Positions 9,028-44,873 of a DNA stretch of 49,272 bases are shown here, piece after piece. Within the stretch, counting starts at the first letter, position 1. Every line of letters starts with the position of its first letter. The translations under genes and the position numbers were made by a program. This stretch comes from Minisyncoccota bacterium (GTDB lineage Bacteria > Patescibacteriota > Minisyncoccia > Phycocordibacterales > XYD1-FULL-46-19). The notes under the pieces were generated by a model, which saw only the letters and a list, made by a program, of their open reading frames with translations, had not been told where the DNA came from and did not search any database. Location of the stretch: contig JAGORB010000002.1 in assembly GCA_018063065.1 (NCBI GenBank), positions 1 to 49,272 on the forward strand, read 5' to 3'.

Positions 9028-9038
9028 AATTTGATAGT

Positions 9039-11917: not shown

Positions 11918-11976
11918 ATCTCCTTCTAAAAATTAAAAGCCGCATGGTTCGCCCAGCGGTTTTATTTTTATAACAA

Positions 11977-15619: not shown

Positions 15620-15648
15620 TTCTTTATTATAGCGTTATAATCTGCAAG
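15620..15648. promoter_or_regulatory. Back-to-back divergent -10 boxes for the GH18 and M15B genes
   Basis: The minus-strand TATAAT (plus coordinates 15626-15631) is 6 nt from the GH18 ATG. The plus-strand TATAAT (15636-15641) is 7 nt from the ATG at 15649. Confidence 0.55.
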
Positions 15649-16521
15649 ATGAAAACGGGTGGTCAAAATTTACTTACCATTATTGTGATCCTTGCCATCT
15701 TACTGACGGGGACCAGTGCTCTTGGTTACTGGTTGTATACCGAGCAGGGGAAGCTGGAGGGCGAGGTGGCCATCTTAACGGCTGAAGTGGCCTTGAAGGA
15801 GGAAGAGATTTTGGCCTTGGAGACTAATAAGGCCGAGTTGGAAGAGAGGTTGGGGATTGAACAAAATCGTAATAATGAATTCGCCGAGCAGATTGATGAG
15901 ATTAGCGGCACGGTGGGAGTGCTGGATAAATTGCAAAAAACTGATAAAGAATTCTTGGCCAAATATTCTAAGGTTTATTTTTTGAATGAGAATTATGTGC
16001 CTAAAGATTTGGCCCTTATCGATAAAGACTTTTGGGCCAATAAGGAGAAGCCAATGCAAATTCATAGTCGGATTGAGTCGAAGATGGATGATTTATTAAA
16101 TGATGCCAAGGATGATGGGGTGGATTTTCTCATCGCTTCCGCTTATCGCTCCTTTGGTACTCAAGCCGAGCTTAAGGCTAATTACCGCTTTACTTACGGC
16201 ACTACCGCCAACAACTTCTCGGCCGAGCAGGGTTACTCCGAGCATCAGTTAGGGACCACCGTCGACTTTACTACGCCGGAGATTGGTCTAGGGTTATCGG
16301 GCTTTGATACCACGGAGGCCTTTAAATGGTTACAGACCAATGCTTATAAATATGGCTTTATCCTCTCTTACCCTCAGGGCAACACTTATTATCAATATGA
16401 GCCGTGGCACTGGCGTTATGTGGGTGTAGATCTGGCTACAGACTTACATCGAGACGAGAAGAATTTTTACAATTTGAGTCAAACGGAGATTAATGAGTAC
16501 TTGGTAAAATTCTTCGACTAA
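15649..16521 (+). CDS. D-alanyl-D-alanine carboxypeptidase, peptidase M15B (VanY-like), membrane anchored
   Basis: TM helix, coiled-coil linker and VanY motifs SAYRSFGTQ, SEHQLGTTVDF and EPWHWRYVG. I chose the ATG at 15649 rather than 15613, which would overlap the divergent gene. Confidence 0.85.
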   Translation: MKTGGQNLLTIIVILAILLTGTSALGYWLYTEQGKLEGEVAILTAEVALKEEEILALETNKAELEERLGIEQNRNNEFAEQIDEISGTVGVLDKLQKTDKEFLAKYSKVYFLNENYVPKDLALIDKDFWANKEKPMQIHSRIESKMDDLLNDAKDDGVDFLIASAYRSFGTQAELKANYRFTYGTTANNFSAEQGYSEHQLGTTVDFTTPEIGLGLSGFDTTEAFKWLQTNAYKYGFILSYPQGNTYYQYEPWHWRYVGVDLATDLHRDEKNFYNLSQTEINEYLVKFFD

Positions 16522-21314: not shown

Positions 21315-22019
21315 ATGCTAAATGTTTTTAGTCCTGATGAGGCGAATCTTCTTCAAAGTAGTTTGCCGGGGGGTTATTTGTTCCTTTTGGGACCGAATGG
21401 TGTCGGCAAAGGAACTCAAGGTAAAGCCTTGGTGGGTAAGATACCGGGGGTAAACGTTCGTTATCTCTCGGTGGGAGAAGAATTCCGGGATCTGATTAAA
21501 CAGAACGGTGACGCGGCCCAAGAGATCAACGGTTATTTGGATCGTTGTGAATTGGTTCCATTGTCGATTCTGACCCGAGAGATCATCTGTCCTTTCTTGC
21601 GTTCTCTTGCATCTCGCGACCTAGCCGTCATCGATGGTTGTCCTCGAAGGGATGACCAAGTGGACGGTGTGATGTCCTTGTTGCCGGAGCAGTCGTTGAA
21701 GTTAGCTTTTGTTTTTAGGGCCAGCGACCCAACCTGCATCAGCCGATTGGTCCACGGAGCTCGCGGACGGAAAGATGACAAACTTCCTGACATCAAGAAG
21801 CGTCTAGCGGAATATCGACGCAACTTTCCGGCGGTGTCTCGCGAGTTGGCGAAAGCTAAGGTTCCCAAGTTGTATGTCGATTCCGACAATCTCTTGCCCG
21901 ATGAAGTGGGCCCAAGGTTTTTGGACGCACTCTTGTGGGGGTGTCGGGCAGTGACCGGAATGAAGACTTATCGCGAGCCGTTCTCGCATGATTTGCCTCT
22001 CTTCGCTCAAGTTGGTTGA
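21315..22019 (+). CDS. Adenylate/UMP-CMP kinase-family NMP kinase, divergent
   Basis: P-loop GPNGVGKGTQG, NMP-binding region LSVGEEFRDLI, IDGCPRR and a short LID (GRKDDKLPDIKKRLAEYR). GGGGAG SD lies 6 nt upstream of the ATG at 21315. There is a C-terminal ~35-aa extension. Confidence 0.7.
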   Translation: MLNVFSPDEANLLQSSLPGGYLFLLGPNGVGKGTQGKALVGKIPGVNVRYLSVGEEFRDLIKQNGDAAQEINGYLDRCELVPLSILTREIICPFLRSLASRDLAVIDGCPRRDDQVDGVMSLLPEQSLKLAFVFRASDPTCISRLVHGARGRKDDKLPDIKKRLAEYRRNFPAVSRELAKAKVPKLYVDSDNLLPDEVGPRFLDALLWGCRAVTGMKTYREPFSHDLPLFAQVG

Positions 22020-22031
22020 TTAGTATTTACA

Positions 22032-22066
22032 CCGCGTGTCCCAAGCTTGGGACCGCGGCTTTTTTG
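22032..22066 (+). terminator. Rho-independent terminator after the NMP-kinase gene
   Basis: CCGCGTGTCCCAAG / CTTGGGACCGCGG (one bulge) followed by CTTTTTTG. Confidence 0.8.
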
Positions 22067-22084
22067 TGTTATAAAGAAATTGAT

Positions 22085-23770
22085 ATGGTGTTAACTACTC
22101 ATGCCGTGGTGGGCGGAGCGATTGGGCGCGTGTTTGCGGGCAATCCCTTGCTTGCTTTTATCCTCGCCTTTGCCAGTCATTTTTTGTTAGATATGATCCC
22201 GCATTGGGACTACCCGCTAAGTTCCAAGGTTACCGATGTGCGCGAGAGTCACACCATGCACTTGCGCTCTGGCTGGCCTCTTATTATGGACATTGGTCGC
22301 GTTAGTCTCGACTTCCTCCTCGGCGCCTTTTTGGTCTACTTCATTTTCCCGCCCGAGACGGCGTGGTGGTTTAGCTCCATTGTCTGGGGCGTGTTGGGAG
22401 CGGTTTTACCAGATGGCCTGCAATTTATTTATGCCAAGTGGCGCCCCTCAATACTTCGGGGTTTACAACGCTTCCATCATTTTATTCATGCCAATCATGA
22501 TCTTAATGATAAGCCGCTCTTAGGTATTACTCTCCAACTTATTTTAATGTTAGTGGTGGTAATTGGAGTTAAGCTCTCCTTGCTTGGTTCTTGGCCGCCG
22601 ATCTTAAGCAGTTTAATCTCATCTTTTAAACTTACTGATGCGCTGGATATTTTAATCGTCGCCGGTATGATTTATCTGGCCCTCATTTTTATCCGCCGGA
22701 CCAAATCATTTTTTATCGTTAACAGCGTTATCTTCCTCTTCGCCATTTATTATTTGTCTCGTTACTTCGATCTAACACTCACGCGCCAAGCCTTCCAATC
22801 CATCCTGACCTTCTTCATTGTCATCTTCGTCATCGTCTTCCAGCGGGAGATTAGACGCTTCTTTGATTGGTTATCCTTCTCTAAGGGTTGGCAGGGCGCG
22901 CTTAATGTCCCTACTAATGACACGCTTACTTTGCTCGCCCGAGCGCTCGCCGAGATGGCCAGGAAGAGAATTGGCGCCATTATTGTGATCCCCGGTGAGG
23001 ATCCGGTCGATCGCTGGCTCGAGAACGGTTATGTCTTGGATGGTAAATTATCTTTGCCATTATTATTGTCTATTTTTGACCCCACTTCACCGGGCCATGA
23101 CGGCGCGGTGTTATTAATTGGGGACAGGGTGCGCCGCTTTGGCTTGCATTTACCGCTCGCCGATAATGTGGGGGCGAGCGGCAGCTTTGGCACGCGTCAC
23201 CGAGCAGCGGTGGGAATTACCGAGCGCACCGACGCCTTAGCGTTGGTGGTGTCGGAAGAGCGCGGTACCATCTCGGCGGTGGAGGGGGGAGTGCTTAAGA
23301 CTATTGATGATCCGGCGCAACTTTTAGAATATTTAAAGCGCTTCATCTCCGAGAACTTGCCCGACGATCACTCGCAAAATATTTGGCACTTCTTATTGCT
23401 TAAAAACTTTTGGATTAAACTCTCGGCCTTGGTGCTCGCGGCCATTTTCTGGTTAGTCCTCGTCTTCCAAATTGGCGTGGTTAATCAGCCCATTGCTGTG
23501 CCGCTTGAATTCCGCTTCTTGCCTGCCGGCCTTGAGATTGTGGATTTAAATACCAATACCGTCACGGTCACGGTCGCCGGTAACAATCGCGACTTACTTA
23601 ACTTCAAGCCCGAGCAAATTAAGGTGGCGGTAGACTTAAGCGCGGCCAAGGCCGGTTATCAAGAATTAATTTTAGATCAAGGGTCGGTGAGTGTGCCCGG
23701 CTTCCTCTCGGTAGTCAAGATTGAACCACGCTTCATCAACTTCCGGTTAGTGGAGGACGATAATAATTAA
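22085..23770 (+). CDS. cdaA: Fusion protein: N-terminal polytopic His/Asp-motif membrane module + CdaA-type diadenylate cyclase + YbbR (CdaR-like) domain
   Basis: CdaA TM region (ALDILIVAGMIYLALIFIRRTKS, FQREIRRFFDWL). DAC motifs (GAIIVIPG, GHDGAVLL, GTRHRAAVGITERTDALALVVSEERGTIS). After a further TM helix comes a YbbR-like beta domain (VPLEFRFLPAGLEIV..VTVTVAG..IKVAVDLS). The N-terminal ~175 aa carry SHFLLDMIPHWDYP. Confidence 0.8.
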   Translation: MVLTTHAVVGGAIGRVFAGNPLLAFILAFASHFLLDMIPHWDYPLSSKVTDVRESHTMHLRSGWPLIMDIGRVSLDFLLGAFLVYFIFPPETAWWFSSIVWGVLGAVLPDGLQFIYAKWRPSILRGLQRFHHFIHANHDLNDKPLLGITLQLILMLVVVIGVKLSLLGSWPPILSSLISSFKLTDALDILIVAGMIYLALIFIRRTKSFFIVNSVIFLFAIYYLSRYFDLTLTRQAFQSILTFFIVIFVIVFQREIRRFFDWLSFSKGWQGALNVPTNDTLTLLARALAEMARKRIGAIIVIPGEDPVDRWLENGYVLDGKLSLPLLLSIFDPTSPGHDGAVLLIGDRVRRFGLHLPLADNVGASGSFGTRHRAAVGITERTDALALVVSEERGTISAVEGGVLKTIDDPAQLLEYLKRFISENLPDDHSQNIWHFLLLKNFWIKLSALVLAAIFWLVLVFQIGVVNQPIAVPLEFRFLPAGLEIVDLNTNTVTVTVAGNNRDLLNFKPEQIKVAVDLSAAKAGYQELILDQGSVSVPGFLSVVKIEPRFINFRLVEDDNN

Positions 23771-23773: not shown

Positions 23774-24547
23774 ATGTCTTATTGGGAAGTATTAATCTTG
23801 GCGATTATTGAGGGGATCACGGAGTTCTTGCCCGTTTCTTCCACTGGCCACCTCATTATCTTTAGCCGGCTGCTGGATATTGTCCCGTCCACCTTCAGTA
23901 CCAGCTTCAATATCACCATTCAATTAGGAGCGATTCTCGCCGTTGTGTCTTTATACGGCCTGCGCCTGAAGGAGAATAAAGATTTATTATTTAAAGTATT
24001 GGTGGCCTTCATCCCCACAGCCATTATTGGCTTAACTGCTTACTCCACTTTAAAGAATTATCTTTTACATAATTTAGCCCTTACCGTCTTGGCGCTGGGG
24101 GTGGGCGGAGTGTTAATTATTTTATTTGAGCGTTGGTATAAAAAACAATTAACCATTAGTGCCAACTTTAATGAGTTAACTTACACTCAAGCTTTGTGGT
24201 TGGGCCTCGCCCAAGCGCTCGCCATTGTGCCAGGTGTCTCGCGCTCGGGCGCGACGATTATTGCCGGACTTTATATGGGCTTGCCGCGCGTGGCGGTGGT
24301 GGAGTTCTCCTTCCTCTTGGCCATCCCGACCATGCTTGCCGCCACTTTATATGATTTATACAAATCAGCTGGGAGCTTTGTGGCTGACGACTGGTCCTTA
24401 CTCCTCTTCGGCTTCGTTGTTTCTTACCTCACCGCTTGGGTAACGGTGAAGTGGTTGATGAAGTTTATTAAGACTCACGACTTTACCGCCTTCGGCGTCT
24501 ATCGGGTACTCTTGGCGGTCTTGCTGTGGTGGCTCTTGCTGGGGTAG
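23774..24547 (+). CDS. uppP: Undecaprenyl-diphosphate phosphatase (BacA/UppP)
   Basis: Motifs EGITEFLPVSSTGHL and PGVSRSGATI; polytopic, 257 aa. Confidence 0.92.
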   Translation: MSYWEVLILAIIEGITEFLPVSSTGHLIIFSRLLDIVPSTFSTSFNITIQLGAILAVVSLYGLRLKENKDLLFKVLVAFIPTAIIGLTAYSTLKNYLLHNLALTVLALGVGGVLIILFERWYKKQLTISANFNELTYTQALWLGLAQALAIVPGVSRSGATIIAGLYMGLPRVAVVEFSFLLAIPTMLAATLYDLYKSAGSFVADDWSLLLFGFVVSYLTAWVTVKWLMKFIKTHDFTAFGVYRVLLAVLLWWLLLG

Positions 24548-31403: not shown

Positions 31404-31479
31404 GTAAACCCAAGTATAATTAACTTTCAGCGGTTATCCACCTAGAAGGGTCAGTTAGTTTATTGTATACTAAACTTAT

Positions 31480-32589
31480 ATGGCTCGTTCTCGCGTAGTT
31501 GAACCGCGGTCTATTACTGACGCTTGGGATCAATCGCTCTTTCAGCAAGCAGTTAAGAAGGTAAAGACCAAGCAACAAGTGCTCACTCAAGCGGCAAGTG
31601 AGGTGGTAATGAAGGCGCAATCCTCGCCGCTTTTACCGGTAACCAATAATCTTAAATTGCTCGCGCCCTTGGCTGGCGTCTTTACCGCTCTTCTTCTCAC
31701 TACTGGTTGGCAGGTGGCGGCGAGTGGTTGGCAATTACCTTTAATCAATAAAGGTTACGAACAATTGGGGGCAGTGGGACAAATGAGTTTCTCTCAAATA
31801 CCGGTGGTTGCCACTTCTGTCCTCGGCGCGGTAAGTGCCACTGGTGATAATGTCTCTACTACTTTTAAATTTTCTTTAACTTCTCTTCAGAGCGGAGTTA
31901 AACAATTATTAGTTAATTTGCAGGCGGCCGGCAATTCTCTCTGGACAGTTATTAATAGAATCGTTGTCACTATTAGCGATTTCTTGGATCGCTCGATGGA
32001 TGAATTTTATGTCAATTTATTGTCGGGGATCGGTTTTATGTCTGATCGCATTGAGGTGGTAGTGGATGGGTGGCTTACCCCTATGTCTTTAGAAGCGCGA
32101 CAGAGTGTGCGAGAGGTGGCTTCCGTGGCGACGGTCATGAACGAGGGTTGGATAGTGGCCCGTGAGAATTTAGCTTGGGGTTTTGAGCAATTAATAAAGT
32201 GGGGGCAAGGAGTAGTTAATAATTGGAATTCTTTCTGGTCCGGTTTGATGTCTAAATTTAATCGCCCTAAAATGCCGGCTATCTTGCCGCTAGGCAGTGA
32301 TAATGAAACCCAAAAGGATATTAAAGAAATTAAACAAGATGTGAAGTCGGTCTTGCGTTTACTTAATAGACAACCTGTTTCTAGTAATGGTTCTTCCGGC
32401 TTGATTGTGGCCCCCAGCACCGGCTCCTTAAGTGGAGATGCCGCCCTTAAAGCTGATATTGCCTCACGCTTCTCTGATCCGGTGGAGGTGAAGGTGGATG
32501 GCAGTGGCAAGGCGGGCGTTATTACTCCTGTCTTTACTACTAGTGGTGAGGGCGATTATCTCTTCTTACTGACGCCGATTAAACAATAA
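31480..32589 (+). CDS. Hypothetical single-pass membrane protein (gene 1 of the exported-protein operon)
   Basis: One TM helix (LLAPLAGVFTALLLTTGW) and a Trp-rich helical ectodomain. An extended -10 TGTATACT (31464-31471) lies 8 nt from the ATG. Confidence 0.7.
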   Translation: MARSRVVEPRSITDAWDQSLFQQAVKKVKTKQQVLTQAASEVVMKAQSSPLLPVTNNLKLLAPLAGVFTALLLTTGWQVAASGWQLPLINKGYEQLGAVGQMSFSQIPVVATSVLGAVSATGDNVSTTFKFSLTSLQSGVKQLLVNLQAAGNSLWTVINRIVVTISDFLDRSMDEFYVNLLSGIGFMSDRIEVVVDGWLTPMSLEARQSVREVASVATVMNEGWIVARENLAWGFEQLIKWGQGVVNNWNSFWSGLMSKFNRPKMPAILPLGSDNETQKDIKEIKQDVKSVLRLLNRQPVSSNGSSGLIVAPSTGSLSGDAALKADIASRFSDPVEVKVDGSGKAGVITPVFTTSGEGDYLFLLTPIKQ

Positions 32590-32593
32590 TTTT

Positions 32594-33445
32594 ATGCGTC
32601 TTGTTCTCTCTCTTGTCTTGGCAATCTGGCTGGGGAGCCCGGCACTAGTTTTGGCCATGGACCCCAGCTTCACCATTGGGCCGGCTAAAAATGAATTTAC
32701 TCTCCTGCCGGGAGGCTCAGTGACTAAGAATATTGCGGTCACTAATAATTTAGGCCGATCGTCAGAATTTACAATTAAAGTCTCTGATTTTAAAGATACG
32801 CCCGTTCAATATGCTTTAAAAAATTATTTAACTCTCGGCACCACCAAGTTAATTATTCCTAATGGTGAGTCGGCAACGGTGCCGGTAACCGTGACCTTGC
32901 CCGCTAATCTACCACCCACCGGTTTGTACGCTGCCGTTAATATTATTGCGAGCCCCGCCGCCCAGGGCGGCGGGGCGCAAGTATCGACCGCTATCTCATC
33001 ATTATTTTTTGTCCGCGTCGCCGGCGAGGCTACGCCCGCCGGCGCGCTCACGGCCTTCGGACCGATTGGTGGCGCGATACAATTATTTAAAAATAGTTTC
33101 AACTTCCATTACTCCTTCCGCAATGACGGCAATATTTATCTCAATCCGTACGGCGCCATTACTATTGAGCGCCGCTTAGCGATTGGCAAGGAAGGTCAAT
33201 TGCCGGTCTTGCCCAACTTTGTGTTGCCGGGCGAGACGCGCTTGCGCGAAGTTAAATTCTTACCCACTTACTCGTGTGGTTGGTTCAAAGCTACCCTTCA
33301 ACTCAATCGCGGTTACGATGACATTATTGATACTAAAAATACTTCCTTCTTTACTTGCTCGCCGCTCGCCGTGGGAAGTATCTTGAGTCTTCTGTTTATC
33401 ATCCTTTTGGCCGGTTGGTGGTTAATGATAAAATTAAAGCGATGA
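32594..33445 (+). CDS. Exported beta-rich (Ig-like) protein with a C-terminal TM anchor, DUF916/DUF3324- or chaperone-like (tentative)
   Basis: Signal peptide, the strand pattern FTIGPAKNEFTLLPGGSVTKNIAVTNN..SEFTIKV, and a C-terminal TM helix plus KLKR. It starts 4 nt after gene 1. Confidence 0.7.
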   Translation: MRLVLSLVLAIWLGSPALVLAMDPSFTIGPAKNEFTLLPGGSVTKNIAVTNNLGRSSEFTIKVSDFKDTPVQYALKNYLTLGTTKLIIPNGESATVPVTVTLPANLPPTGLYAAVNIIASPAAQGGGAQVSTAISSLFFVRVAGEATPAGALTAFGPIGGAIQLFKNSFNFHYSFRNDGNIYLNPYGAITIERRLAIGKEGQLPVLPNFVLPGETRLREVKFLPTYSCGWFKATLQLNRGYDDIIDTKNTSFFTCSPLAVGSILSLLFIILLAGWWLMIKLKR

Positions 33446-34188
33446 TCAAGCGAGTTACCTGGCTGTTGTTAATCTGGCTCGCGCTCTCCGGGAGCGCGCT
33501 CGCCTATGTGGCCTCCAGCACCAATTATCAAATTGAGTTAGACAGCATCAACTTTGCCGGTGGTTTATCCACCTCTACCAATTACAGTTTAGAAGATACG
33601 GCCGGCGAGGTGGGGAGCGGCAGCTTATCTTCCGCCACTTACAATATTCACGCTGGTTATCAGCAGATGACCGGTACAGCCAGCACTCTTAGTATTACTT
33701 CACCCAGCAATGTCACGCTCACGCCAGCTATCCCCGAGACCGGCGGTGGCACCGCGACCGGCAGTACCAGTTGGACCGTTACTACCAGCAACTCAGCCGG
33801 TTATGAATTAGAGATTGCCGCCGCGGCCTCGCCAGCTCTCACCACCGGTAGCGACAGCTTCACCGATTATGTGCCGGCCGGAGCGAGCCCCGACTTCACC
33901 TTCACGGTCGCGAGCGCTTCATCCGTCTTTGCCTTCTCGCCCGAGGGCAGTCACATTGCCAGCCGTTATAAAGATAATGGTTCCACTTGTGCCACTGGTA
34001 GCGGTGATGTAGCGGATGCTTGCTGGGACGGCTTCTCTACCACCGATCGGGTAATTGCCACCTCGGGTAGTGCCACACCCAGCGGTACGGCCACCACTTT
34101 AAATTTGCGCGCCGCCGCTGGCGCCGCTAAAACTCAACCCGACGGTGCTTATTCGGCTACTCTCACGGTTACCGCTACTGCTTTATGA
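33442..34188 (+). CDS. Secreted Ser/Thr/Ala-rich putative fibre or pilin-like subunit
   Basis: ATGA overlap with the upstream stop and a signal peptide. S-x-N-Y-type repeats (SSTNYQIEL, STSTNYSLE, SSATYNIHA). The C-terminal strand is GAYSATLTVTATAL. Confidence 0.7.
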   Translation: MIKRVTWLLLIWLALSGSALAYVASSTNYQIELDSINFAGGLSTSTNYSLEDTAGEVGSGSLSSATYNIHAGYQQMTGTASTLSITSPSNVTLTPAIPETGGGTATGSTSWTVTTSNSAGYELEIAAAASPALTTGSDSFTDYVPAGASPDFTFTVASASSVFAFSPEGSHIASRYKDNGSTCATGSGDVADACWDGFSTTDRVIATSGSATPSGTATTLNLRAAAGAAKTQPDGAYSATLTVTATAL

Positions 34189-36380
34189 GTAAAAAATATT
34201 TAATAATTATTAGCTTATTGACTCTTGTCCCACTGGGCTTAATCGCGCAGACTTCCGACAGTGTGAATGTGGGCTTAGAAGTAGCTCCGGATAATGATCC
34301 CGGCGGGGGAGGAGGGGGTGAGACTTTAATCGGTGGTTGGGTGTATGAAGATGCTGATGCTAATGGTAGTAAAGGCTCGTCCGAGGGTTGGCTTGCTGGT
34401 TGGACTATTAATTTATATAAAGATGGAACCATTGTCCGTACTCTGCAGAGCTCCGATGAGAAGGGTTTGTTTTATTTTTTAGATTTAGATCCTGGGATTT
34501 ACCAAGTGTGTGAAGACTTAATTGACCCCGATGAATGGGTGCAGACGGATCCTAATGCCACTGGTGGCTCATCGTGGCGGGCCGGGGACAGAGTGTTGTG
34601 CCCCAATGGTACTTGGGGTTACGAGACAGAAATTGAAGATGGTGAGGAGGCATACAGCTTCACCTTCGGTAACTTTGGCGGTGCCATTGGTGGAGTGCCG
34701 AATGTGATTAACTTTACGGCTACGCCAGCGACCACGGTTATTAATTTAAATTGGCAGAATCCAAATTACTTACCTCTCCAGGCGGTGCGGATTGTGCGCT
34801 TAATCGGCGGTGTGCCGGCTGATCCCAATGACGGCGAGTTGGTATATGAGGGCACCGGTGAGTCGGCCGTGGATAGCAATGTGGTACCGGGAGTAACTTA
34901 CACTTATGCCGCCTTTGTGCGTAATACCAGTAATCAATATTCTTCCGGTGCCATCGCCTCGGCCATGATTAGTGTGGGTGATGATGAGGATCCGCCCGAG
35001 TGCGAGACCGAGCCTTGTGATGATTTGCCTCCGGGTGATGACAATGTCTTCGATAATTACCCAACGGCCATTGATAATAGCTTACCGTCACCAACTTTAA
35101 TTTTTATTCAACCTAGTCATGGAGCCCAATCTTTGTCGGCGAGTGGCTCGGTGGAGATTGATGGCGCGGAAGAGTTAACAGTCTTCCTACCCGTGGGCGC
35201 CGTGCCGGAGGGGCTTAAGACTATTGGTCTAACCTTATTTGCCCCCAATAGTAATCGCTCGTTCTCCTTTATTTTACGTCTCAATGACGAGCGTACTGGT
35301 TATACCGCTACCCTTGCGCCCTTAGGCGAGAGCGGTCGTTACAACTTTACGCTCCATATTATTAATTATAAGAATCAACAAATTCAGCGCGTTAATGGAA
35401 CACTCGTGGTCTCGGCCAGTATTGGTCAATTACCCATTCCGGAAGGCTTAGATAATGTAGCGGTAGGTTTGGGCGTGGCGGTAGGTTTAACTCAATTATT
35501 ATTAGTAGCCACTCAAGCCAAGTCATTGACGGACATTTACTTAATTATTCTGCGGGCACTCTCGGCCCTCTTTGGCTACACCGGACTCAAGCGTCGTTAT
35601 CAACCGTGGGGCACGGTGTATGACGCCATTACCAAGCGACCGATTGATCCGGCGGTGGTAACCCTAATGCAGGGAGACAAAGAGGTAAGTACCGCTATTA
35701 CCGATATTGATGGGCGGTACGGCTTCTTCCTCCCGCCGGGCAATTATCACTTGAAGGCGGGTAAAACCCACTACCTCTTCCCCTCCAAGATCTTGGCCGG
35801 ACAAGAGAGTGACCCACTGTATAATAATCTCTACTTCGGTCAGGCGATTACCACCGAGAAGGCGGGAGAGATTGTGGCCCGCAATATCCCGCTTGACCCA
35901 ATCGACTTCGACTGGAATGAATTTGTAAAAAATAAAGGCCAGTACTTTAAATTAGCCACGCGCCGCCGGCGAGTGCAGGCGATTATCTTTAACGGTCTGT
36001 ATTTATTGGGCTTCGTTATTGCTGTCTTCCACACTCTCACTTCACCCTCTACTACCGACTTCGTAATCTTGGCGGCCTACTTGGCGATTTATGCCGGGCA
36101 GAAGTTCTGGAAGTATCGTTATCCGGTCTTGTCTTTGAAGCGTCAGGGCGGCGAGCCACTTTCTTATTCCGTGATTAAAGTCTTCCTCGCCGGACTTAAT
36201 CAAGAAGTGAAGAGAGTGATTACCAATGAGCTAGGCCAATTCTACTTGCTCTTGCGCCCGGGGGAGTACTACTTCGTGATTGAAGAAAAACTACCCGACG
36301 CCTCGTATCGTGAGGTCCACCGTTCCTCCCCTCAAGTCCTCAAAACCGGTGTCCTCCAAAAAGATCTCATCATCCCATAA
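34185..36380 (+). CDS. Large multidomain surface/membrane protein (SdrD-B-like, Fn3-like, carboxypeptidase-regulatory-like domains, internal TM helices)
   Basis: ATGA overlap with the upstream gene and a signal peptide. SdrD-B-like segment GGWVYEDADANGSKGSSEGWLAGWTINLYKDG..GLFYFLDLDPGIYQV. Fn3-like segment (TVINLNWQNP..YTYAAFVRN). An acidic Cys-containing linker follows. The C-terminal half has hydrophobic helices alternating with WGTVYDAITKRPI..DIDGRYGFFLPPGNYHL-type domains. Confidence 0.75.
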   Translation: MSKKYLIIISLLTLVPLGLIAQTSDSVNVGLEVAPDNDPGGGGGGETLIGGWVYEDADANGSKGSSEGWLAGWTINLYKDGTIVRTLQSSDEKGLFYFLDLDPGIYQVCEDLIDPDEWVQTDPNATGGSSWRAGDRVLCPNGTWGYETEIEDGEEAYSFTFGNFGGAIGGVPNVINFTATPATTVINLNWQNPNYLPLQAVRIVRLIGGVPADPNDGELVYEGTGESAVDSNVVPGVTYTYAAFVRNTSNQYSSGAIASAMISVGDDEDPPECETEPCDDLPPGDDNVFDNYPTAIDNSLPSPTLIFIQPSHGAQSLSASGSVEIDGAEELTVFLPVGAVPEGLKTIGLTLFAPNSNRSFSFILRLNDERTGYTATLAPLGESGRYNFTLHIINYKNQQIQRVNGTLVVSASIGQLPIPEGLDNVAVGLGVAVGLTQLLLVATQAKSLTDIYLIILRALSALFGYTGLKRRYQPWGTVYDAITKRPIDPAVVTLMQGDKEVSTAITDIDGRYGFFLPPGNYHLKAGKTHYLFPSKILAGQESDPLYNNLYFGQAITTEKAGEIVARNIPLDPIDFDWNEFVKNKGQYFKLATRRRRVQAIIFNGLYLLGFVIAVFHTLTSPSTTDFVILAAYLAIYAGQKFWKYRYPVLSLKRQGGEPLSYSVIKVFLAGLNQEVKRVITNELGQFYLLLRPGEYYFVIEEKLPDASYREVHRSSPQVLKTGVLQKDLIIP

Positions 36381-36429: not shown

Positions 36430-37443
36430 ATGGCGTTTTTTAATAAGAAATTGGGGATTGATTTGGGAACAGCTAATACGCTGGTCTTTGTGCCGGGGCA
36501 GGGGATTGTGCTCAATGAGCCCTCGGTGGTGGCGGTGTCAGAAGTTGATAATCGGGTAGTAGCGGTAGGCACCGAGGCCAAGGAGATGGTGGGTAAAACG
36601 CCAGACAATATTGTGGCCTATCGGCCAATGAAGGACGGAGTTATTGCCGATTACCGCATCACTGAGGCCATGCTTCGTTATTATATTCAGAAGGCCTTGG
36701 GCAAGTGGAATTTAATCAAGCCCGATGTCATGATCTCGGTCCCGGCCGGCGTTACCTCCACCGAGCGCCGCGCGGTTATTGAGGCGGCAATGAAGGCGGG
36801 CGCTAAAAATGCCTATGTGGTTAAGGAGCCGATCCTCGCCGCTATCGGCGCCGGCATCCCCATTTATGAACCGAAGGGGCACATGGTGGTGGATATTGGT
36901 GGTGGCACCACTGATGTCGCGGTAATTTCTCTCGGCGGCATCGTGGCTTCCACCTCGGTTAAATATGCCGGCAATAAAATTGATCAAGCCATCGCCGATT
37001 ATATTAAAAAGACTTTCAATCTGGCGATTGGCGAGAAGATGGCCGAGGAGGTCAAGATTGCCATCGGTTCGGCCGTGCCAATTGAAGATGAGTTATCTTA
37101 TGTCATTAAGGGCCGCGACTTCTTAACCGGCCTCCCGCGCTCGGCCGAGGTCAAGACCAATGAGATTGTGCGAGCAATTGACAATGAGTTGCGCGAGATT
37201 GTGAAGGCGATTAAGGCCGTCTTCCAAGACACGCCTCCAGAGTTGGCGGCGGATATTATTGATCGTGGCATTACTATGACCGGTGGCTCGTCTCAACTTC
37301 GCAATTTGCCAGAACTCGTTTTCCGTCGCACCGGTGTTAAGGCGGTCTTGGCCGATGAGGCCTTGTATTGCGTGGTTAAGGGCACCGGTGTCGCCCTTGA
37401 TCACCTCGAGATTTATAAGAAGAGCATTATTACCAAGCAGTAA
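36430..37443 (+). CDS. mreB: Rod shape-determining actin homologue MreB (paralogue 1)
   Basis: GIDLGTANTLVF, the phosphate/adenosine motifs DIGGGTTDVAVISLGG, and GITMTGGSSQLRNL. Confidence 0.93.
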   Translation: MAFFNKKLGIDLGTANTLVFVPGQGIVLNEPSVVAVSEVDNRVVAVGTEAKEMVGKTPDNIVAYRPMKDGVIADYRITEAMLRYYIQKALGKWNLIKPDVMISVPAGVTSTERRAVIEAAMKAGAKNAYVVKEPILAAIGAGIPIYEPKGHMVVDIGGGTTDVAVISLGGIVASTSVKYAGNKIDQAIADYIKKTFNLAIGEKMAEEVKIAIGSAVPIEDELSYVIKGRDFLTGLPRSAEVKTNEIVRAIDNELREIVKAIKAVFQDTPPELAADIIDRGITMTGGSSQLRNLPELVFRRTGVKAVLADEALYCVVKGTGVALDHLEIYKKSIITKQ

Positions 37444-39828: not shown

Positions 39829-41076
39829 ATGCGGCAATCGGCTCTATTTACTAAGACGCGGCGGGAGGATCCTAAGGATGAAGTGGCTAAGAATGCCCGC
39901 CTCTTAACGCGAGCCGGATTTATTCATAAAGAGTTGGCCGGCGTTTATTCTTACTTACCTTTGGGCTTACGAGTGGTAGAGAAGATCAATAACATCATTC
40001 GGGAAGAAATGAATGCCTTGGGCGCTCAAGAAGTGTCTCTCTCTAATCTCCAAGACCCCAGTATTTGGGACAAGACCGATCGTTGGAGCGACGAGTCGGT
40101 AGATGTCTGGTTTAAGACCAAACTTAAGAATGACACTGAGCTGGGTCTCAACTTTACCAATGAAGAGCCGATAACTCGTTTGGCTCAAGAGCATATTCAA
40201 TCTTATCGCGACTTGCCAGCCTCGCTGTATCAAATTGGCCGGAAGTTTAGGAATGAGACTAGGGCCAAGAGCGGTATCCTCCGCGGACGAGAATTCTTAA
40301 TGAAGGATCTTTATTCTTTCCACGCTACCGAAGAAGATTTAAATAATTTTTATGAGAAGGTGAAGCAAGCTTACCTAAATATTTTTAAGCGGGTTGGTTT
40401 GGGCGATCATACTTACATCACCTACGCCTCCGGCGGTGTGTTTAGTGAATTTAGCCATGAATTCCAGACCCTGTGTGAGGCTGGCGAGGATGTTATTTAT
40501 TATTCTGACGAGAAGAAGTTGGCTGTTAATAAGGAGGTTTATAATGATGAAGTTCTAAACACTGTTGGTCTAGAACGCTCTGACTTGGAGGAGGGCAAGG
40601 CGATTGAAGTGGGTAATATTTTTAAACTCGGCACCCGCTTCTCGGAGGCCCTCGATCTTAGTTACCTAGATGAATCGGGCAAGAAGGTGCCGGTGGTGAT
40701 GGCCTCTTACGGTATTGGTCCGGAGCGAGTGATGGGCACGGTGGTGGAGGTCTTGGCTAAAGATAATGCCTTGGTCTGGCCGGAGAGTATTGCGCCGTTT
40801 AAGCTCCACTTAATTGTTCTTAATCAAGAAGAAGCAGCGGTTAAAGCCGAAGCGGATAAAATTTATGACGAGTTGGTAAGTCGCGGCGTGGAAGTGCTTT
40901 ATGATGATCGCGAGCTCTCCACGGGTGAGAAGTTGGGTGATGCCGACTTGCTAGGCTTGCCTCGGCGGGTGATTGTGAGTAAGCGCAACTTAGAGGCAGG
41001 GCAAGTGGAGTGTAAAGAAACTTTAACCGGTAAGACTGACATGATGACTACGGCTGATTTATATGACTCCCTTTAA
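39829..41076 (+). CDS. proS: Prolyl-tRNA synthetase, bacterial type lacking the INS editing domain
   Basis: Class II motifs (FRNETRAKSGILRGREFLMKDLYSF; GNIFKLGTRFSEAL; ASYGIGPERV) and an anticodon-binding domain. It is only 415 aa. Confidence 0.9.
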   Translation: MRQSALFTKTRREDPKDEVAKNARLLTRAGFIHKELAGVYSYLPLGLRVVEKINNIIREEMNALGAQEVSLSNLQDPSIWDKTDRWSDESVDVWFKTKLKNDTELGLNFTNEEPITRLAQEHIQSYRDLPASLYQIGRKFRNETRAKSGILRGREFLMKDLYSFHATEEDLNNFYEKVKQAYLNIFKRVGLGDHTYITYASGGVFSEFSHEFQTLCEAGEDVIYYSDEKKLAVNKEVYNDEVLNTVGLERSDLEEGKAIEVGNIFKLGTRFSEALDLSYLDESGKKVPVVMASYGIGPERVMGTVVEVLAKDNALVWPESIAPFKLHLIVLNQEEAAVKAEADKIYDELVSRGVEVLYDDRELSTGEKLGDADLLGLPRRVIVSKRNLEAGQVECKETLTGKTDMMTTADLYDSL

Positions 41077-42151
41077 TTTTGATTTTAAAAAATTATTAAA
41101 CTGGCGAGAATGGCTATCTACTCTCGGCAGTGATATTGGTTTGGACCTCGGTACTTCCAGCACTCTTATTTATATTAAGGGGCAGGGGATTGTGTCGGTG
41201 GAGCCCTCGATTGTGGCCGTTAATCAGAAGACCGGTCGGGTGGTGGCCATTGGTACCGATGCTGCCAGTATGATTGGCCGGACGCCCGCCCATATTGAGG
41301 CGGTGCGGCCACTCTTGGCTGGCGTGATCTCCAACTTTGAAGTAACAGAAGAGATGCTGGCCTACTTTATGCGCAAGGCGATTAATGCCTCGGGTAAAAA
41401 GTATTTCCGTCCGCGGGTGGTGGTGGGCGTGCCGTCCTCGATTACCAATGTTGAGCGCCGGGCGGTGCGCGATGTGGTGCGTAATGCTGGCGCCAGAGAA
41501 GTGCATTTAATTGAAGAGCCAATGGCCGCCGCCTTGGGCATTCGCTTGCCGGTGTATGATCCGGTGGGCAGTATGGTTATTGATATTGGTGGTGGGACCA
41601 CTGACATTGCCGTTATTTCCTTGGGTGGGATTGTGAAGGCCAAGAATTTACATATTGCCGGCGAGAAGTTGAATCAAGACATTATTACTTATGTCCGCGA
41701 TGAGTTTAAAATTTTATTAGGCGAGAAGACAGCCGAGGAGGTGAAGATTGCCATTGGCTCGGTGTATAAGGTTGCTGGCGTGAGCGAGGCCACCATCCGC
41801 GGACGTGACTTGGTAACAGGTCTGCCACGCGAGGTGGTCATTACTGATGCCGATATTAGAGAGGCGGTCATGCCCTCAATCCAAACTTTAGTCGAGGCAG
41901 TGAAGGAGGTCTTAGAGACTACTCCACCGGAAGTGTTGTCGGATATTATGAATCGGGGAATTATCTTAGTCGGGGCTGGGTCCCAAATTCAAGGCTTGCC
42001 GCAACTACTGGAGCGAGAATTGGAATTACCGGTGCACTTGGTGGATGATCCGGTGACGGCGGTGGTGCGCGGGACGGGGGTAATTTTAGAGAATGTAAAT
42101 GAATATCGTGATATCTTAATTGATAATGAAGATGAACTTCCGCCCCGATAA
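41063..42151 (+). CDS. mreB: MreB paralogue 2 (with an N-terminal ~25-aa extension)
   Basis: GLDLGTSSTLIY, DIGGGTTDIAVISLGG and GIILVGAGSQIQGL. It overlaps the proS stop by 14 nt and heads mreC-mreD-mrdA. Confidence 0.92.
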   Translation: MTPFNFDFKKLLNWREWLSTLGSDIGLDLGTSSTLIYIKGQGIVSVEPSIVAVNQKTGRVVAIGTDAASMIGRTPAHIEAVRPLLAGVISNFEVTEEMLAYFMRKAINASGKKYFRPRVVVGVPSSITNVERRAVRDVVRNAGAREVHLIEEPMAAALGIRLPVYDPVGSMVIDIGGGTTDIAVISLGGIVKAKNLHIAGEKLNQDIITYVRDEFKILLGEKTAEEVKIAIGSVYKVAGVSEATIRGRDLVTGLPREVVITDADIREAVMPSIQTLVEAVKEVLETTPPEVLSDIMNRGIILVGAGSQIQGLPQLLERELELPVHLVDDPVTAVVRGTGVILENVNEYRDILIDNEDELPPR

Positions 42152-42950: not shown

Positions 42951-43197
42951 GCGTTTATTGTTGGGAGTTGTTCTCTTAATTTCTCTCTTTTTTGGGCCGT
43001 GGTGGCTCACAGTTATTATTGGCTTGTTTGGTCTAATTTATTTTAAGAATTATTATGAGGTGGCCGTCGTGGCTTTACTCTTTGATCTCATTTATGGCTC
43101 GGCTAGCGCCTCGCCGTGGTTGCCGCTACCATTCTTCCTAAGTTCTGTCGTGCTCTTGCTTATTGTCTCACCCCTCCGTTATCGCTTATGGTATTAA
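42940..43197 (+). CDS. mreD: Small 3-TM membrane protein in the MreD position
   Basis: The assignment rests on synteny between mreC and the PBP2 gene and on hydrophobicity alone. At 85 aa it is shorter than a typical MreD. Confidence 0.45.
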   Translation: MLAKRLLLGVVLLISLFFGPWWLTVIIGLFGLIYFKNYYEVAVVALLFDLIYGSASASPWLPLPFFLSSVVLLLIVSPLRYRLWY

Positions 43198-44873
43198 ACT
43201 TCTTCCGTCGCTCCCGCAATCTCTCTCGTCCACCCTTGGAGCCGGACGAGATCTTTATCGACTCGCACAATTTACCCAAATTTGATACCCAACAATTTGA
43301 GGGTCGCTTAGAGAAGCCGATTCGTAAGCAGAGCTTCATTTTAGCGGCGTTAGTCTTCCTTCTCATTGGGGTCATTTTTGGCGGGCGAGTTTTTGTTTTA
43401 CAAGTGTGGCGCGGCACCGCCTACGCCGAGCGCAGCGAGAACAATAATCTCCGGCATACACCCATCTTCCCCGAGCGGGGAATTATTTATGACCGCAATG
43501 GCGAGCAATTATCGTGGAATACACCCAACCGCACTTATCCCACTGAGCCGGGCTTTGGTCACATCTTGGGTTACATTGGTTATCCGAAGGAGGAAGAGAT
43601 AGAAGACGGTTACAATCCTAAAGAATTTATTGGTCGGGAGGGCTTGGAGCGCTTCTTTAACGCCGCCCTGGCCGGCACCAAGGGCGTGAAGATTGAGGAG
43701 GTGGATGTGGGTGGTAATATTAAATCCGATTATTTATTATCCGAGCCGGAGAGCGGGGAGAGTATTGTGAGTTCGGTGGATAAGCGTTTAACAGCCGAGT
43801 TGTATAAACGCATTGAGACGCTCTCGCGCGAGCGTGGCTTCAAGGCCGGCGCGGCGGTAATCATGGATATTCAGACGGGCGAGGTGATCGCTCTCACCAG
43901 TTATCCGGAATATAATCCCAACTACTTGGTAGCCACCGGCACCGATCACTCCTTGATCAATCAATACTTAACCGATAAGCGCTCGCCATTTTTAAACCGG
44001 GCTATTTCTGGCCTCTACACTCCGGGCTCGATTATTAAACCGTTTATTGCCCTGGCCGCTTTAGAGGAGGGGGTAATTAGTCCGACTAAAACTATTGTTA
44101 GTACCGGCCAGTTAGTGGTACCTAATCCTTATAATCCAGATAAACCCACTATTTTTAAAGACTGGAAGGCGCATGGGGCGGTAGATATGAGACGGGCCTT
44201 GGCCGTTTCTTCTGACGTTTATTTTTATCAAATTGGTGGCGGCTTTGGTAAAAGTCAGGCGGGGTTGGGGGTTAAGCGGATAGAGGAGTACATTCGTTAT
44301 TTTGGTTTTGGCGCGCCGACCGGTATTAAATTGGCTCATGAAGAAGTTGGTGTCATCCCAAGCCCGGAATGGAAGAAGGAAAACTTTGATGGCGAGGATT
44401 GGCTCTTAGGTAATACTTATCACACCTCGATTGGACAATATGGCTTTTTGGTTACGCCTATTCAGGTAGTGCGGGCGGTGGCTGGTTTAGCCTCTGGTAA
44501 ATTGGTGGAGCCAACACTCTTTAAAGCCGATGTAGAGACTAAACCGGCGGTGAAGAAACTTAATTTTAATGCCGGTAATTTACAAGTGGTGCATGAGGGT
44601 ATGAGGCGCGCCGTCCAAGAGGGGACGGCTGTGGGCTTAAATGTGGGGACAGTGGAGATCGCGGCTAAAACTGGTACGGCGGAGTTGGGTGTATCTAAAG
44701 AGGAGGTTAACTCGTGGGTGATGGGTTTTTGGCCCTATCAGCAGCCTAAGTATGCCTTTGCGATTGTGATGGAACGGGGGCATAAATCTAACTTAGTGGG
44801 AGCCGTTTCCGCCATGCGCGGTCTCCTCGACTGGCTGGCCATCTACAAACCCGAGTATCTGAAAACTTCATAA
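43188..44873 (+). CDS. mrdA: Penicillin-binding protein 2 (elongation transpeptidase)
   Basis: TM anchor, PBP dimerisation domain, and the transpeptidase motifs SIIKP (SxxK), SSD (SxN-like) and KTGTA. I chose the ATG at 43188. Confidence 0.9.
   Translation: MVLNFFRRSRNLSRPPLEPDEIFIDSHNLPKFDTQQFEGRLEKPIRKQSFILAALVFLLIGVIFGGRVFVLQVWRGTAYAERSENNNLRHTPIFPERGIIYDRNGEQLSWNTPNRTYPTEPGFGHILGYIGYPKEEEIEDGYNPKEFIGREGLERFFNAALAGTKGVKIEEVDVGGNIKSDYLLSEPESGESIVSSVDKRLTAELYKRIETLSRERGFKAGAAVIMDIQTGEVIALTSYPEYNPNYLVATGTDHSLINQYLTDKRSPFLNRAISGLYTPGSIIKPFIALAALEEGVISPTKTIVSTGQLVVPNPYNPDKPTIFKDWKAHGAVDMRRALAVSSDVYFYQIGGGFGKSQAGLGVKRIEEYIRYFGFGAPTGIKLAHEEVGVIPSPEWKKENFDGEDWLLGNTYHTSIGQYGFLVTPIQVVRAVAGLASGKLVEPTLFKADVETKPAVKKLNFNAGNLQVVHEGMRRAVQEGTAVGLNVGTVEIAAKTGTAELGVSKEEVNSWVMGFWPYQQPKYAFAIVMERGHKSNLVGAVSAMRGLLDWLAIYKPEYLKTS

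Follow-up and report, generated by a model that had tools for sequence, protein, structure and literature searches.

What does an ultra-small bacterium build from four consecutive genes whose every product is exported or membrane-bound? This question is raised by the window, the whole stretch of 49,272 nucleotides from a Minisyncoccota bacterium that was analysed here. Four plus-strand genes, g1 to g4, span positions 31480-36380 of it, and a hydropathy scan and AlphaFold2 models agree with an earlier note on this DNA that all four products carry a signal peptide or a transmembrane (TM) anchor. Our answer, to which we assign a probability of about 60%, is that the operon encodes a chaperone-assisted, donor-strand-linked surface appendage of a single-membrane bacterium, assembled without an usher. 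The module is most likely related to the recently discovered Pam pili, the CPR-type pilus of Candidatus Mycosynbacter amalyticus described in a 2026 bioRxiv preprint (10.64898/2026.03.03.709456), and to the WxL complexes on the surface of Gram-positive bacteria.

The genes are tightly packed. A 4-nt gap (TAA-TTTT-ATG) separates g1 (31480-32589, 369 aa) from g2 (32594-33445, 283 aa), while exact ATGA stop/start overlaps join g2 to g3 (33442-34188, 248 aa, starting at the ATG at 33442) at 33442-33445, and g3 to g4 (34185-36380, 731 aa) at 34185-34188. All of this was verified as previously described, except that the module had been started at 31466, whereas g1 has its first ATG at 31480. The g3/g4 overlap recurs in a related locus (L006), but exact overlaps are not kept among relatives: across ten such loci the junctions vary between -4 and +55 nt. 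The packing had been taken to imply fixed stoichiometry, of which overlap alone is no proof. However, g2 and g3 are fused in frame in other lineages (three genome loci and 16 protein clusters), and these fusions do point to 1:1 co-production of g2 and g3.

The gene order g1-g2-g3-g4 is kept in 10/10 complete loci examined. As the same order is found in every one of these, the arrangement is far beyond chance. The ten loci fall into three different neighbourhoods: in the window and in L011 the module immediately precedes mreB-holB-frr-rseP, and in L006 it is also near mreB; in the Saccharibacteria-type loci it lies beside obg-gatB...gapA; and in L016 it lies beside trmD. A promoter-like site separately precedes mreB. 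Clustered at 90%, the g3 family comprises at least 954 homologs, and at 50% it forms 2,223 clusters, none of them annotated; carriers of the module include the Paceibacteria-type lineages Paceibacterota, Minisyncoccia and Jacksonbacteria. The four-gene module is widespread in ultra-small (CPR) bacteria and was previously unannotated.

The second gene is the chaperone-like component. It encodes a signal peptide (residues 1-21), two domains (25-142 and 150-255) and a TM helix (257-282), and the AlphaFold2 model (mean pLDDT 89.6) folds the domains as Ig-type beta-sandwiches, in keeping with the Ig-like, C-terminally anchored protein described earlier. The top Foldseek matches are the WxLIP structures 9i1y and 9i25 (E 3.5e-11), followed by CfaA, FimC, DraB, CsuC and Caf1M (E 1e-8 to 1e-9), with TM-scores of 0.5-0.62 to chaperone-usher chaperones. 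The Pfam model WxLIP_PGBD is matched by 14/22 members of the g2 family, the window g2 scoring 15.1 bits, under the 27.3-bit threshold, and the family profile matches the EfmWxLIP1 sequence (E 2.7e-7). No DUF3324 match was seen in g2, the g2 family matched none of the NCBIfam Pam models, and at the sequence level neither the g2 nor the g3 family matched the Pfam models for PapD-family or fimbrial proteins. g2 is a true WxLIP homolog with a PapD-like fold. The earlier note's verdict that the locus fits neither WxL complexes nor chaperone-assisted pili was thus too negative.

The last strand of g2 domain 1 (TAISSLFFVRV, residues 132-142, 32987-33019) is a candidate donor strand to the subunit. 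Its mean conservation of 0.74 is the highest of any strand in the g2 family (consensus SRLGSLFFVRV), and it presumably matches the G1 donor strand position of PapD-like chaperones. g2 also contains the string LPPTG (residues 106-110, 32909-32923), which we rejected as a sorting signal because it is embedded in a beta-sandwich domain and homologs do not keep it, their consensus being PGGLYG. The earlier statement that no LPXTG signal occurs therefore holds for the signal but not for the string.

The third gene encodes a pilin-like subunit. It had been described as Ser/Thr/Ala-rich and secreted, and indeed 55% of its residues are Ser, Thr, Ala or Gly and its signal peptide (residues 1-21) ends in ALA before YVAS. 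This is followed by an N-terminal tract of 55 residues (22-76, 33505-33669) with three S-x-x-Y-x-[IL]-type units, a candidate donor region for which the monomer model gives a pLDDT under 50, and by a C-terminal Ig-like pilin domain (77-248, 33670-34185) with a pLDDT above 90 and an invariant Cys183-Cys194 pair. Columns that are at least 90% conserved make up 27% of the tract versus 13% of the folded domain. The C-terminus is fixed, all 266 of 266 g3-family proteins stopping 0-2 residues past the last strand. The family comes in small and long forms, the latter with N-terminal binding domains in front of the C-terminal module, so that the tract sits between the N-terminal and C-terminal domains; in some variants the heads are lectin or FnIII domains. 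Domain-only paralogs that lack the tract, as expected of caps, fill slot 1 in L015 and L016.

Donor-strand fibre subunits rank first among the Foldseek matches of g3 (TasA, CS20, CfaB/CfaE, the PapG pilin domain, FimG, CsuA/B and PapE), none of them individually significant (best E 0.024). Searches of Pfam and of PDB sequences with the g3 profile gave no match. In NCBIfam, the model 'CPR-type pilus protein PamT' is matched by 43/44 g3-family members (best E 5e-15), over the tract plus the initial strands of the domain; the match is internal in one protein, P0177, and so is not a signal-peptide artefact. All scores are far lower than the model's cutoff of 240 bits, with 30.7 bits for the window g3 and 36-53 bits for Saccharibacteria orthologs. 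Judged by these profile scores, g3 is a distant homolog of PamT and forms a sister family, since the match is detectable yet far below the cutoff. It is the single pilin-like gene in the window, where no PamA/B/E-type pilin was found.

The fourth gene is a candidate membrane anchor, terminator and stalk. Pfam and hydropathy agree with its earlier description as a 731-aa multidomain protein with adhesin-type domains and internal TM helices: a signal peptide (residues 1-22) precedes SdrD_B (49-126), SpaA-like and CarboxypepD_reg (476-530) domains and a C-terminal beta domain, while its homologs carry fn3, Big_5 and CarboxypepD_reg. An FnIII/Ig core (170-412) is conserved in every locus that extends far enough to include it. 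Residues 422-445 and 596-619 are predicted TM segments, and two further stretches, 450-467 and 623-643, are less strongly hydrophobic; the predicted topology past the first TM segment is uncertain. The mature protein begins with an amphipathic beta-strand, DSVNVGLEV (residues 25-33, 34257-34283), a candidate donor strand that is directly followed by a Gly-rich linker (34-48). Such a strand with a Gly/Pro/Thr-rich or Cys-containing linker is found at the N-terminus of 9/9 g4 homologs.

The first gene is putatively a conserved single-pass accessory protein. It has one TM segment (residues 58-76, 31651-31707), a cytoplasmic N-terminus and a Trp-rich outer region at about residues 200-270, as expected from the earlier account of a Trp-rich single-pass protein. 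Its Trp content is 2.7%, in our judgement roughly twice that of a typical protein. No significant match was found in Pfam or NCBIfam. A g1 homolog fills slot 1 in most related loci, and alignment reveals a C-terminal three-strand motif, FSDxVxV...GVITPxF...DYLFLLTP (residues 331-369, 32470-32586), in which the columns F, S, D, V, P, F and P are invariant across 7 loci; in distant loci the tblastn matches are confined to this region. An hhalign comparison showed no relationship of the motif to g3.

How might these parts work together? We propose that Sec exports or inserts all four proteins, and that g2, tethered by its TM helix, would first hold the Ig-like domain of the fibre subunit g3 at the outer face of the membrane, completing its fold with a strand of its own, probably residues 132-142. 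The tract of the next g3 would then take the place of the strand lent by g2, so that subunits would be joined head to tail. Assembly would stop when the N-terminal strand of g4 fills the last free g3, placing g4 at the presumed base of the fibre, where its FnIII/Ig domains may span the wall as a stalk and its TM helices may hold the fibre in the membrane. Whether g3 self-polymerises in this way or a single g3 sits on each g4 stalk is, in our estimate, an even call. Binding to host cells is a plausible role for the module.

The main rival is a WxL-type, non-polymeric complex, in which g2 permanently binds g3 and displays it as a 1:1 surface heterodimer, in the way that has been suggested for WxLIP and WxL in Firmicutes, or a single g3 caps each g4 stalk, with the tract serving as a ligand-binding or wall-binding element rather than as a donor strand. 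Several observations that favour it also weaken the polymer: WxLIPs outrank pilus chaperones among the fold and sequence matches of g2 and are known from 1:1 complexes only, the only solved partner structure being the WxLIP-WxL complex 9i25; the g2-g3 fusions and the ATGA coupling suggest equimolar production and fit a 1:1 complex at least equally well; and the Pam model assigns PamT, the closest named protein to g3, to a tip that does not polymerise and is described without a donor strand (10.64898/2026.03.03.709456). The small and long forms of g3 likewise resemble small and long WxL proteins. The presence of only one pilin-like gene further weakens the polymer, and the fibre reading in general is weakened by three results on g3: no individually significant fold match, no profile match in Pfam or the PDB, and a PamT score of 30.7 bits against a cutoff of 240. 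However, 0/44 g3-family members match the Pfam WxL domain and g3 lacks the dual Trp-x-Leu motif. A non-polymeric complex would also leave unexplained why the tract of g3, its best-conserved part, has no structure in the monomer model, why g4 keeps an N-terminal strand on a linker and why tract-less paralogs occur within the operon of some lineages. We consider this rival rather unlikely.

A chaperone-independent matrix fibre of the TasA/TapA kind, formed by extracellular donor-strand self-assembly with g2 and g4 as unrelated surface proteins, would fit the top-ranked fold match of g3, the TasA subunit 8aur (E 0.024), and TasA-family proteins have been reported in Patescibacteria (PMC9245690). 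Yet the TM-scores to TasA are low (0.23-0.24), 0/44 g3-family members match Pfam Peptidase_M73/TasA, and the strict co-location of g2 with g3, even as fusions, argues for a dedicated partner; we regard such a fibre as highly improbable. It is also very unlikely that there is no common machine, i.e. that four unrelated envelope proteins are co-transcribed, for example as wall-associated or cell-shape factors beside mreB. The mreB neighbourhood and the lack of a recognisable family for g1 would suit this idea, but gene order stays constant while the neighbourhood changes, several lineages have g2-g3 fusions, and a promoter-like site separately precedes mreB. The donor-strand appendage remains our preferred reading. 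It supports the surface-fibre or adhesin assembly module proposed in the earlier note, and none of the contrary outcomes named there was found: profile searches lead to surface and pilus families (WxLIP and PapD-like for g2, distantly PamT for g3, SdrD_B and FnIII-type for g4), the four genes keep their order across CPR classes, and the monomer models suggest a pilin-like subunit with a chaperone-like partner.

Among known systems, TasA/TapA of Bacillus and the archaeal bundling pili share donor-strand-linked fibres in organisms without an outer membrane, and TasA is the top-ranked, non-significant g3 fold match. In contrast to TasA/TapA, g3 has no Peptidase_M73 signature and a low TM-score, no SipW-type peptidase gene was found, and g3 is accompanied by a dedicated chaperone-like partner. 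The chaperone-usher systems (Pap, Fim, CFA/I, Csu, Caf1) resemble the module in the fold of g2 (E about 1e-8, TM-score 0.5-0.62), in the non-significant ranking of the g3 domain closest to Gram-negative pilins, and in a g3 C-terminus at the last strand combined with a conserved N-terminal extension. They differ in that the CPR carrier has no outer membrane and no usher, g2 is membrane-anchored rather than soluble, the donor candidate of g3 has about 55 residues in three repeats rather than a single strand of about 10-20 residues, and PapD-family or fimbrial Pfam matches are lacking at the sequence level.

In the WxL/Csc clusters of Firmicutes, WxLIP consists of DUF916, DUF3324 and a TM helix (PMC10599100; PDB 9i1y, 9i25) and, according to prediction, contributes a strand of its own that completes the WxL sandwich. 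Like WxLIP, g2 has a signal peptide, two Ig domains and a C-terminal TM helix, and in both systems the partner family has small forms and long forms with N-terminal binding domains. However, g3 has no detectable WxL domain or dual Trp-x-Leu motif, there is one partner gene instead of at least two WxL genes, the small LPXTG protein is absent, the window g2 falls below the WxLIP_PGBD threshold (15.1 versus 27.3 bits) with no DUF3324 match, and the carrier is a CPR bacterium, not a Firmicute.

These two comparators of the earlier note, WxL/Csc and chaperone-assisted pili, are relevant, but the closest system, the Pam pili (10.64898/2026.03.03.709456), was not named there. Several differences from Pam stand out. 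The two-domain major pilins PamA/B/E are absent, leaving a single pilin-like gene; g3 scores 30.7 bits against the 240 of the PamT equivalog, its Saccharibacteria orthologs being likewise low (36-53 bits); the g2 family has WxLIP as its closest match and fits no NCBIfam Pam model; g4, which contains transthyretin-like domains and several TM segments, far exceeds the described size of PamR; no counterpart of g1 has been described for Pam; ATP synthase and CorB genes are missing from the neighbourhood; and the module occurs in Paceibacteria-type lineages, beyond the classes where Pam pilins are most prevalent (10.64898/2026.03.03.709456). On the other hand, both systems belong to CPR hosts, all components have signal peptides and there is no usher. 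The C-terminal domain of the subunit is Ig-like, g3 is similar in sequence to PamT over the conserved tract, and headed g3-family variants share the layout of PamA/B, i.e. an N-terminal domain, a linker and a C-terminal domain (10.64898/2026.03.03.709456). The anchors, g4 and PamR, are both TM-tethered, with FnIII-type domains and an extra N-terminal strand. The chaperone has a PapD/FimC-like two-domain fold and a C-terminal TM helix, and TM-anchored chaperones are predicted for Pam pili too (10.64898/2026.03.03.709456). That CPR bacteria build donor-strand pili has been shown experimentally for Pam (10.64898/2026.03.03.709456).

The four plus-strand genes of the module, g1 (31480-32589, 369 aa), g2 (32594-33445, 283 aa), g3 (33442-34188, 248 aa) and g4 (34185-36380, 731 aa), are consecutive and packed as the earlier note described. 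The ORFs of the window leave a gap of 4 nt between g1 and g2, and the ATGA overlaps at the g2/g3 (33442-33445) and g3/g4 (34185-34188) junctions have exactly the coordinates it gave. It had started g1 at 31466; the gene is there, with its first ATG at 31480. All four products were also said to carry a signal peptide or a TM anchor, and a hydropathy scan and the structure models bear this out: g1 has a single TM segment, g2 a signal peptide and a C-terminal TM helix, g3 a signal peptide, and g4 a signal peptide and several TM segments. The claim that LPXTG sorting signals are missing holds in the sense that none is functional, although the string LPPTG does occur in g2 (residues 106-110, 32909-32923), inside its first Ig domain. 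It is not conserved in homologs and is not followed by a sorting-signal tail, therefore we regard it as a chance match. A promoter and terminator scan within the operon gave no informative site, and terminator-like sites were fewer than in shuffled sequences.

The AlphaFold2 model of g2 is confident (mean pLDDT 89.6, from a 22-sequence alignment) and consists of a signal helix, two beta-sandwich domains (residues 25-142 and 150-255) and a C-terminal TM helix (257-282). When the model was compared with the PDB using Foldseek, the WxL-interacting protein (WxLIP) of Enterococcus faecium ranked first (9i1y and 9i25, E 3.5e-11 to 1.7e-10), followed by RbmA and then by CfaA, FimC, DraB, YadV, CsuC, Caf1M and EcpB. 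The matches to chaperone-usher chaperones have E-values of about 1e-8 to 1e-9 and target-normalised TM-scores of up to 0.62. The relationship to WxLIP is also found at the sequence level in the g2 family, 14 of whose 22 members match the Pfam domain WxLIP_PGBD (DUF916; best E 3.6e-8), and a family profile matches the EfmWxLIP1 chain (9i25) with an E-value of 2.7e-7. The g2 of the window is itself sub-threshold for WxLIP_PGBD, and no sequence match to DUF3324 was seen; its single sequence finds no match among PDB sequences, where the family profile is needed. No PapD-family Pfam match was obtained for g2 or its family members, hence this likeness is one of fold only, and in NCBIfam the family matches no Pam chaperone model, with just weak matches to 'choice-of-anchor T'. 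The best conserved strand in the family is the last of domain 1, SRLGSLFFVRV. The donated G1 strand of PapD-like chaperones sits at the end of domain 1, and the two strands may be equivalent. There are at least 889 clusters in this family at 90% identity, all labelled 'hypothetical', and the few named members are Saccharimonadales.

For g3 we found at least 954 homologs at 90% clustering, the best 120 of which are all about 250 aa long and 51-70% identical; at 50% identity, and with E-values of up to 1e-3, the family has 2,223 clusters. None of the members examined has a Pfam domain or an informative name, the named ones being 'hypothetical'. In NCBIfam, g3 matches the model 'CPR-type pilus protein PamT' (NF058579; E 2e-7, 30.7 bits), as do 43 of 44 family members (best E 5e-15, best score 52.8 bits), all of them under the equivalog cutoff of 240 bits. 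The AlphaFold2 monomer divides g3 into a beta-sandwich (residues 78-248, pLDDT >90) and an N-terminal tract (24-76, pLDDT <50) that contains three S-x-x-Y-x-[IL]-type units. Across 204 sequences, 27% of the columns in the tract are at least 90% conserved, compared with 13% in the folded domain, and the alignment with PamT (profile positions ~9-131) falls on the tract. This similarity is not a signal-peptide artefact, since the match is internal in one homologous protein, P0177 (residues 133-246). The paralogs of g3 that lack a tract do not match the PamT model.

The fold list for the g3 domain is headed by TasA, CS20, CfaB/CfaE, the PapG pilin domain, FimG, CsuA/B and PapE, with a best E-value of 0.024, so that none is individually significant, a best probability of 0.95 and TM-scores of up to 0.50. 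Searches against PDB sequences with the single sequence and with a profile returned nothing meaningful. The pair Cys183-Cys194 is invariant in the family, and 266 of 266 family proteins stop 0-2 residues past the last strand; both features fit a pilin. A thioredoxin-like protein (Rcas_1661 family/DsbG-like) is encoded on the minus strand at 7319-8041 of the window and could bear on the formation of this cysteine pair.

The gene g4 encodes SdrD_B, SpaA-like and CarboxypepD_reg domains (Pfam), and an SdrD B domain is its sole match among PDB sequences. The conserved part in relatives spans residues 170-412. Its homologs have FnIII (fn3) and Big_5 domains and at least one TM helix, often with transthyretin-like domains after it. 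In all nine homologs compared the mature N-terminus is an amphipathic strand, e.g. DSVNVGLEV, QFNVSVTV, QTVIGLTV or GIQVILSV, and this is followed by a linker that is Gly/Pro/Thr-rich or contains Cys. No recognisable family was found for g1 in Pfam or NCBIfam; its relatives share the TM helix and a conserved C-terminal three-strand motif. A relationship between the g1 C-terminus and the g3 domain was rejected (hhalign probability 0.2%). An excisionase-type HTH at the N-terminus of g1 relatives is not supported; there was a single weak HTH_17 match (E 0.076), and it is absent from the g1 of the window.

Variants of the family were surveyed in 272 proteins with the g3 module, 41 of which have a long N-terminal extension. 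In 16 of the 41 (P0016, P0143, P0145 and 13 others) g2 is fused to g3, and the chain runs from the g2 TM helix through a short basic loop and the g3 signal peptide into the tract, therefore cleavage would still free g3 outside the cell. The fused gene runs on as one uninterrupted ORF in three named genomes of the CPR (Saccharibacteria, Minisyncoccia and Paceibacterota); such ORFs lie at 6146-7750, 6047-7720 and 6152-7615 of the related loci L002, L003 and L004. The other 25 extended proteins carry a different N-terminal domain directly before the tract; in a Pfam scan of ten, six had ConA-like lectin, DUF2341, Gly-rich or FnIII domains and four had no match. The layout of these 25 is shared both by the pilins PamA/B (N-terminal domain, linker, C-terminal domain) and by 'long WxL' proteins. 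At two loci, L015 (4352-5020) and L016 (4360-4998), the operon position of g1 is held by a g3 paralog of about 220 aa rather than a g1-type protein. These paralogs match the domain only (profile positions 80-247, E 1e-23 and 4e-35) and lack the tract, and therefore have the architecture of a strand-accepting, non-donating, cap-like subunit.

The earlier note also suggested testing whether the genes co-occur in the same order in relatives, and the order of slot 1 (the position of g1), g2, g3 and g4 is kept in all ten complete loci, with junctions of -4 to +55 nt; g2 adjoins g3 in three incomplete loci too. The flanks are of three types: priA-def upstream and mreB downstream (directly after g4 in the window and in L011, several genes on in L006), obg-gatB upstream with gapA downstream, and trmD upstream. 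Across loci the identities are 50-57% for g3, 57-61% for Def, 60% for Frr, 39-47% for PriA and 30-38% for g2; g3 is strongly conserved across classes, at a level similar to that of Def and Frr. In the window, fmt-like, def and priA genes lie upstream on the minus strand, and mreB, holB-like, frr and rseP genes downstream. A profile search of all window ORFs found no second g3-type gene, and the remaining ORFs are housekeeping and cell-wall genes with no other pilin-like gene among them.

Two MreB paralogs are encoded in the window (36430-37443, directly after g4, and 41063-42151; also 43116-44873), the second beside a PBP2-type transpeptidase, which places the pilus-like module at the edge of a cell-shape gene cluster. 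Peptidoglycan-related genes (9039-9749, 15613-16521, 16538-18193 and 23774-24547) encode two polysaccharide deacetylases, a VanY-type D-Ala-D-Ala carboxypeptidase and the undecaprenyl-diphosphatase UppP. A 584-aa protein with diadenylate cyclase (DAC) and YbbR domains is found at 22016-23770; c-di-AMP signalling has been tied to epithelial adhesion in Lactiplantibacillus plantarum, in a study that mentions WxL throughout (2026, PMC13522541). In L015 two genes directly follow the module, one for a small HTH_17-like protein (8268-8600) and one (8602-12750) for a protein that exceeds 3,200 aa and carries a Peptidase_S74 (tail-fibre chaperone-type) domain. This brings to mind the 'tail fibre-like protein' reported from the surroundings of Pam operons. 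Downstream of the module in L001, two identical 125-aa minus-strand ORFs (11559-11936 and 13713-14090), about 2.1 kb apart, point to a long direct repeat, which may be part of a large gene for a repetitive surface protein.

The surface-fibre or adhesin assembly module proposed in the earlier note is supported by the profile HMM searches (WxLIP_PGBD for the g2 family, PamT below its cutoff for g3, the three Pfam domains of g4), by the WxLIP/pilus-chaperone fold of the g2 monomer and by a g3 fold list topped by donor-strand subunits, none of them significant. Apart from the start of g1 and the LPPTG string, this comes with a caveat about polymerisation. In our reading the module would build a surface fibre or fibril by strand complementation, with the aid of a chaperone but with no usher. 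The subunit would be g3 and its chaperone g2, tethered to the membrane; g4 would serve as both anchor and stalk, and g1 as a putative accessory. The tract of g3 may drive polymerisation, or a lone g3 may be mounted on each g4 stalk or on g2 in a 1:1 complex. The conserved tract, the long variants and the cap-like paralogs argue for polymerisation; fusion of g2 with g3, the relationship to WxLIP and the tip role proposed for PamT argue for the 1:1 complex.

These results also allow a wider and more tentative reading, to which we give a probability of roughly 0.3. Among the donor-strand fibre systems of the CPR, the module might be the minimal one and the most widespread. It might also be an evolutionary bridge between three systems that have until now been dealt with apart: the WxL clusters of Firmicutes (g2/WxLIP), the Pam pili of the CPR (the g3/PamT tract) and the chaperone-usher pili of Gram-negatives (the fold). 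The conserved three-repeat tract of ~55 residues would be a new donor element, and assembly would need a membrane-tethered chaperone and a membrane-anchored terminator alone. In that case PamT-type proteins would have a donor tract as well, rather than being simple caps.

CPR bacteria (Patescibacteria) make up a large share of bacterial diversity. To our knowledge every cultivated member lives attached to other microbes, and, as far as we know, little has been learned of how they attach apart from type IV pili and, since a report of 2026, Pam pili. The module is widespread and unannotated, and is found in lineages outside the classes in which Pam pilins were found to be most prevalent. Should it build fibres, the module would be a strong candidate for the general organelle by which CPR bacteria attach, and a minimal model of donor-strand assembly that dispenses with an usher; the WxLIP fold, so far poorly understood, would gain a function. 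Annotation, 'visual proteomics' by cryo-EM and genetics in the tractable Saccharibacteria all gain concrete targets from it; the Cell 2023 paper on Saccharibacteria genetics does not mention such a module.

Several known systems can be compared with the module. Sortase-assembled pili have a C-terminal LPXTG and a sortase; here the sole LPXTG string is internal to g2, and there is no sortase among the ORFs scanned. The subunits of TasA/TapA/SipW fibres belong to Peptidase_M73 (TasA), which no member of a set of 44 g3 family proteins matches, and g3 was rejected as a TasA homolog. Classical chaperone-usher pili have a soluble periplasmic PapD-family chaperone, whereas g2 is membrane-anchored and alike in fold only; no domain of an outer-membrane usher was found in g1-g4 or the other window ORFs scanned. 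In WxL/Csc clusters the WxLIP protein consists of DUF916 (PGBD), DUF3324 (HBD) and a C-terminal TM helix. The g2 protein may be of this kind: its architecture and fold match, while by sequence PGBD is seen in family members of g2 and by the family profile. [quoted passage not shown]

Among known systems, the Pam pilus of Ca. Mycosynbacter amalyticus comes closest. Its pilins are linked by donor strands in cryo-EM, and its operon has genes for PapD-like chaperones with a TM anchor and for a terminator, PamR, which is likewise TM-anchored and has FnIII-type domains and an extra N-terminal strand proposed to end and anchor the pili (10.64898/2026.03.03.709456). That preprint does not mention WxL or DUF916, therefore the link between WxL and Pam has apparently not been drawn there. 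[quoted passage not shown] Because g3 is also far under the PamT cutoff and the chaperone is closest to WxLIP, we place the module outside Pam membership, as a variant. That said, it appears to share the logic of the Pam pilus: the truncated Ig-like C-terminal domain by which pilins accept a donor strand may have a counterpart in the confidently modelled domain of g3, a PapD/FimC-like chaperone with a C-terminal TM helix is found in g2, and PamR may have a counterpart in g4, with its N-terminal strand and linker, its TM segments and the fn3 and Big_5 domains of its homologs.
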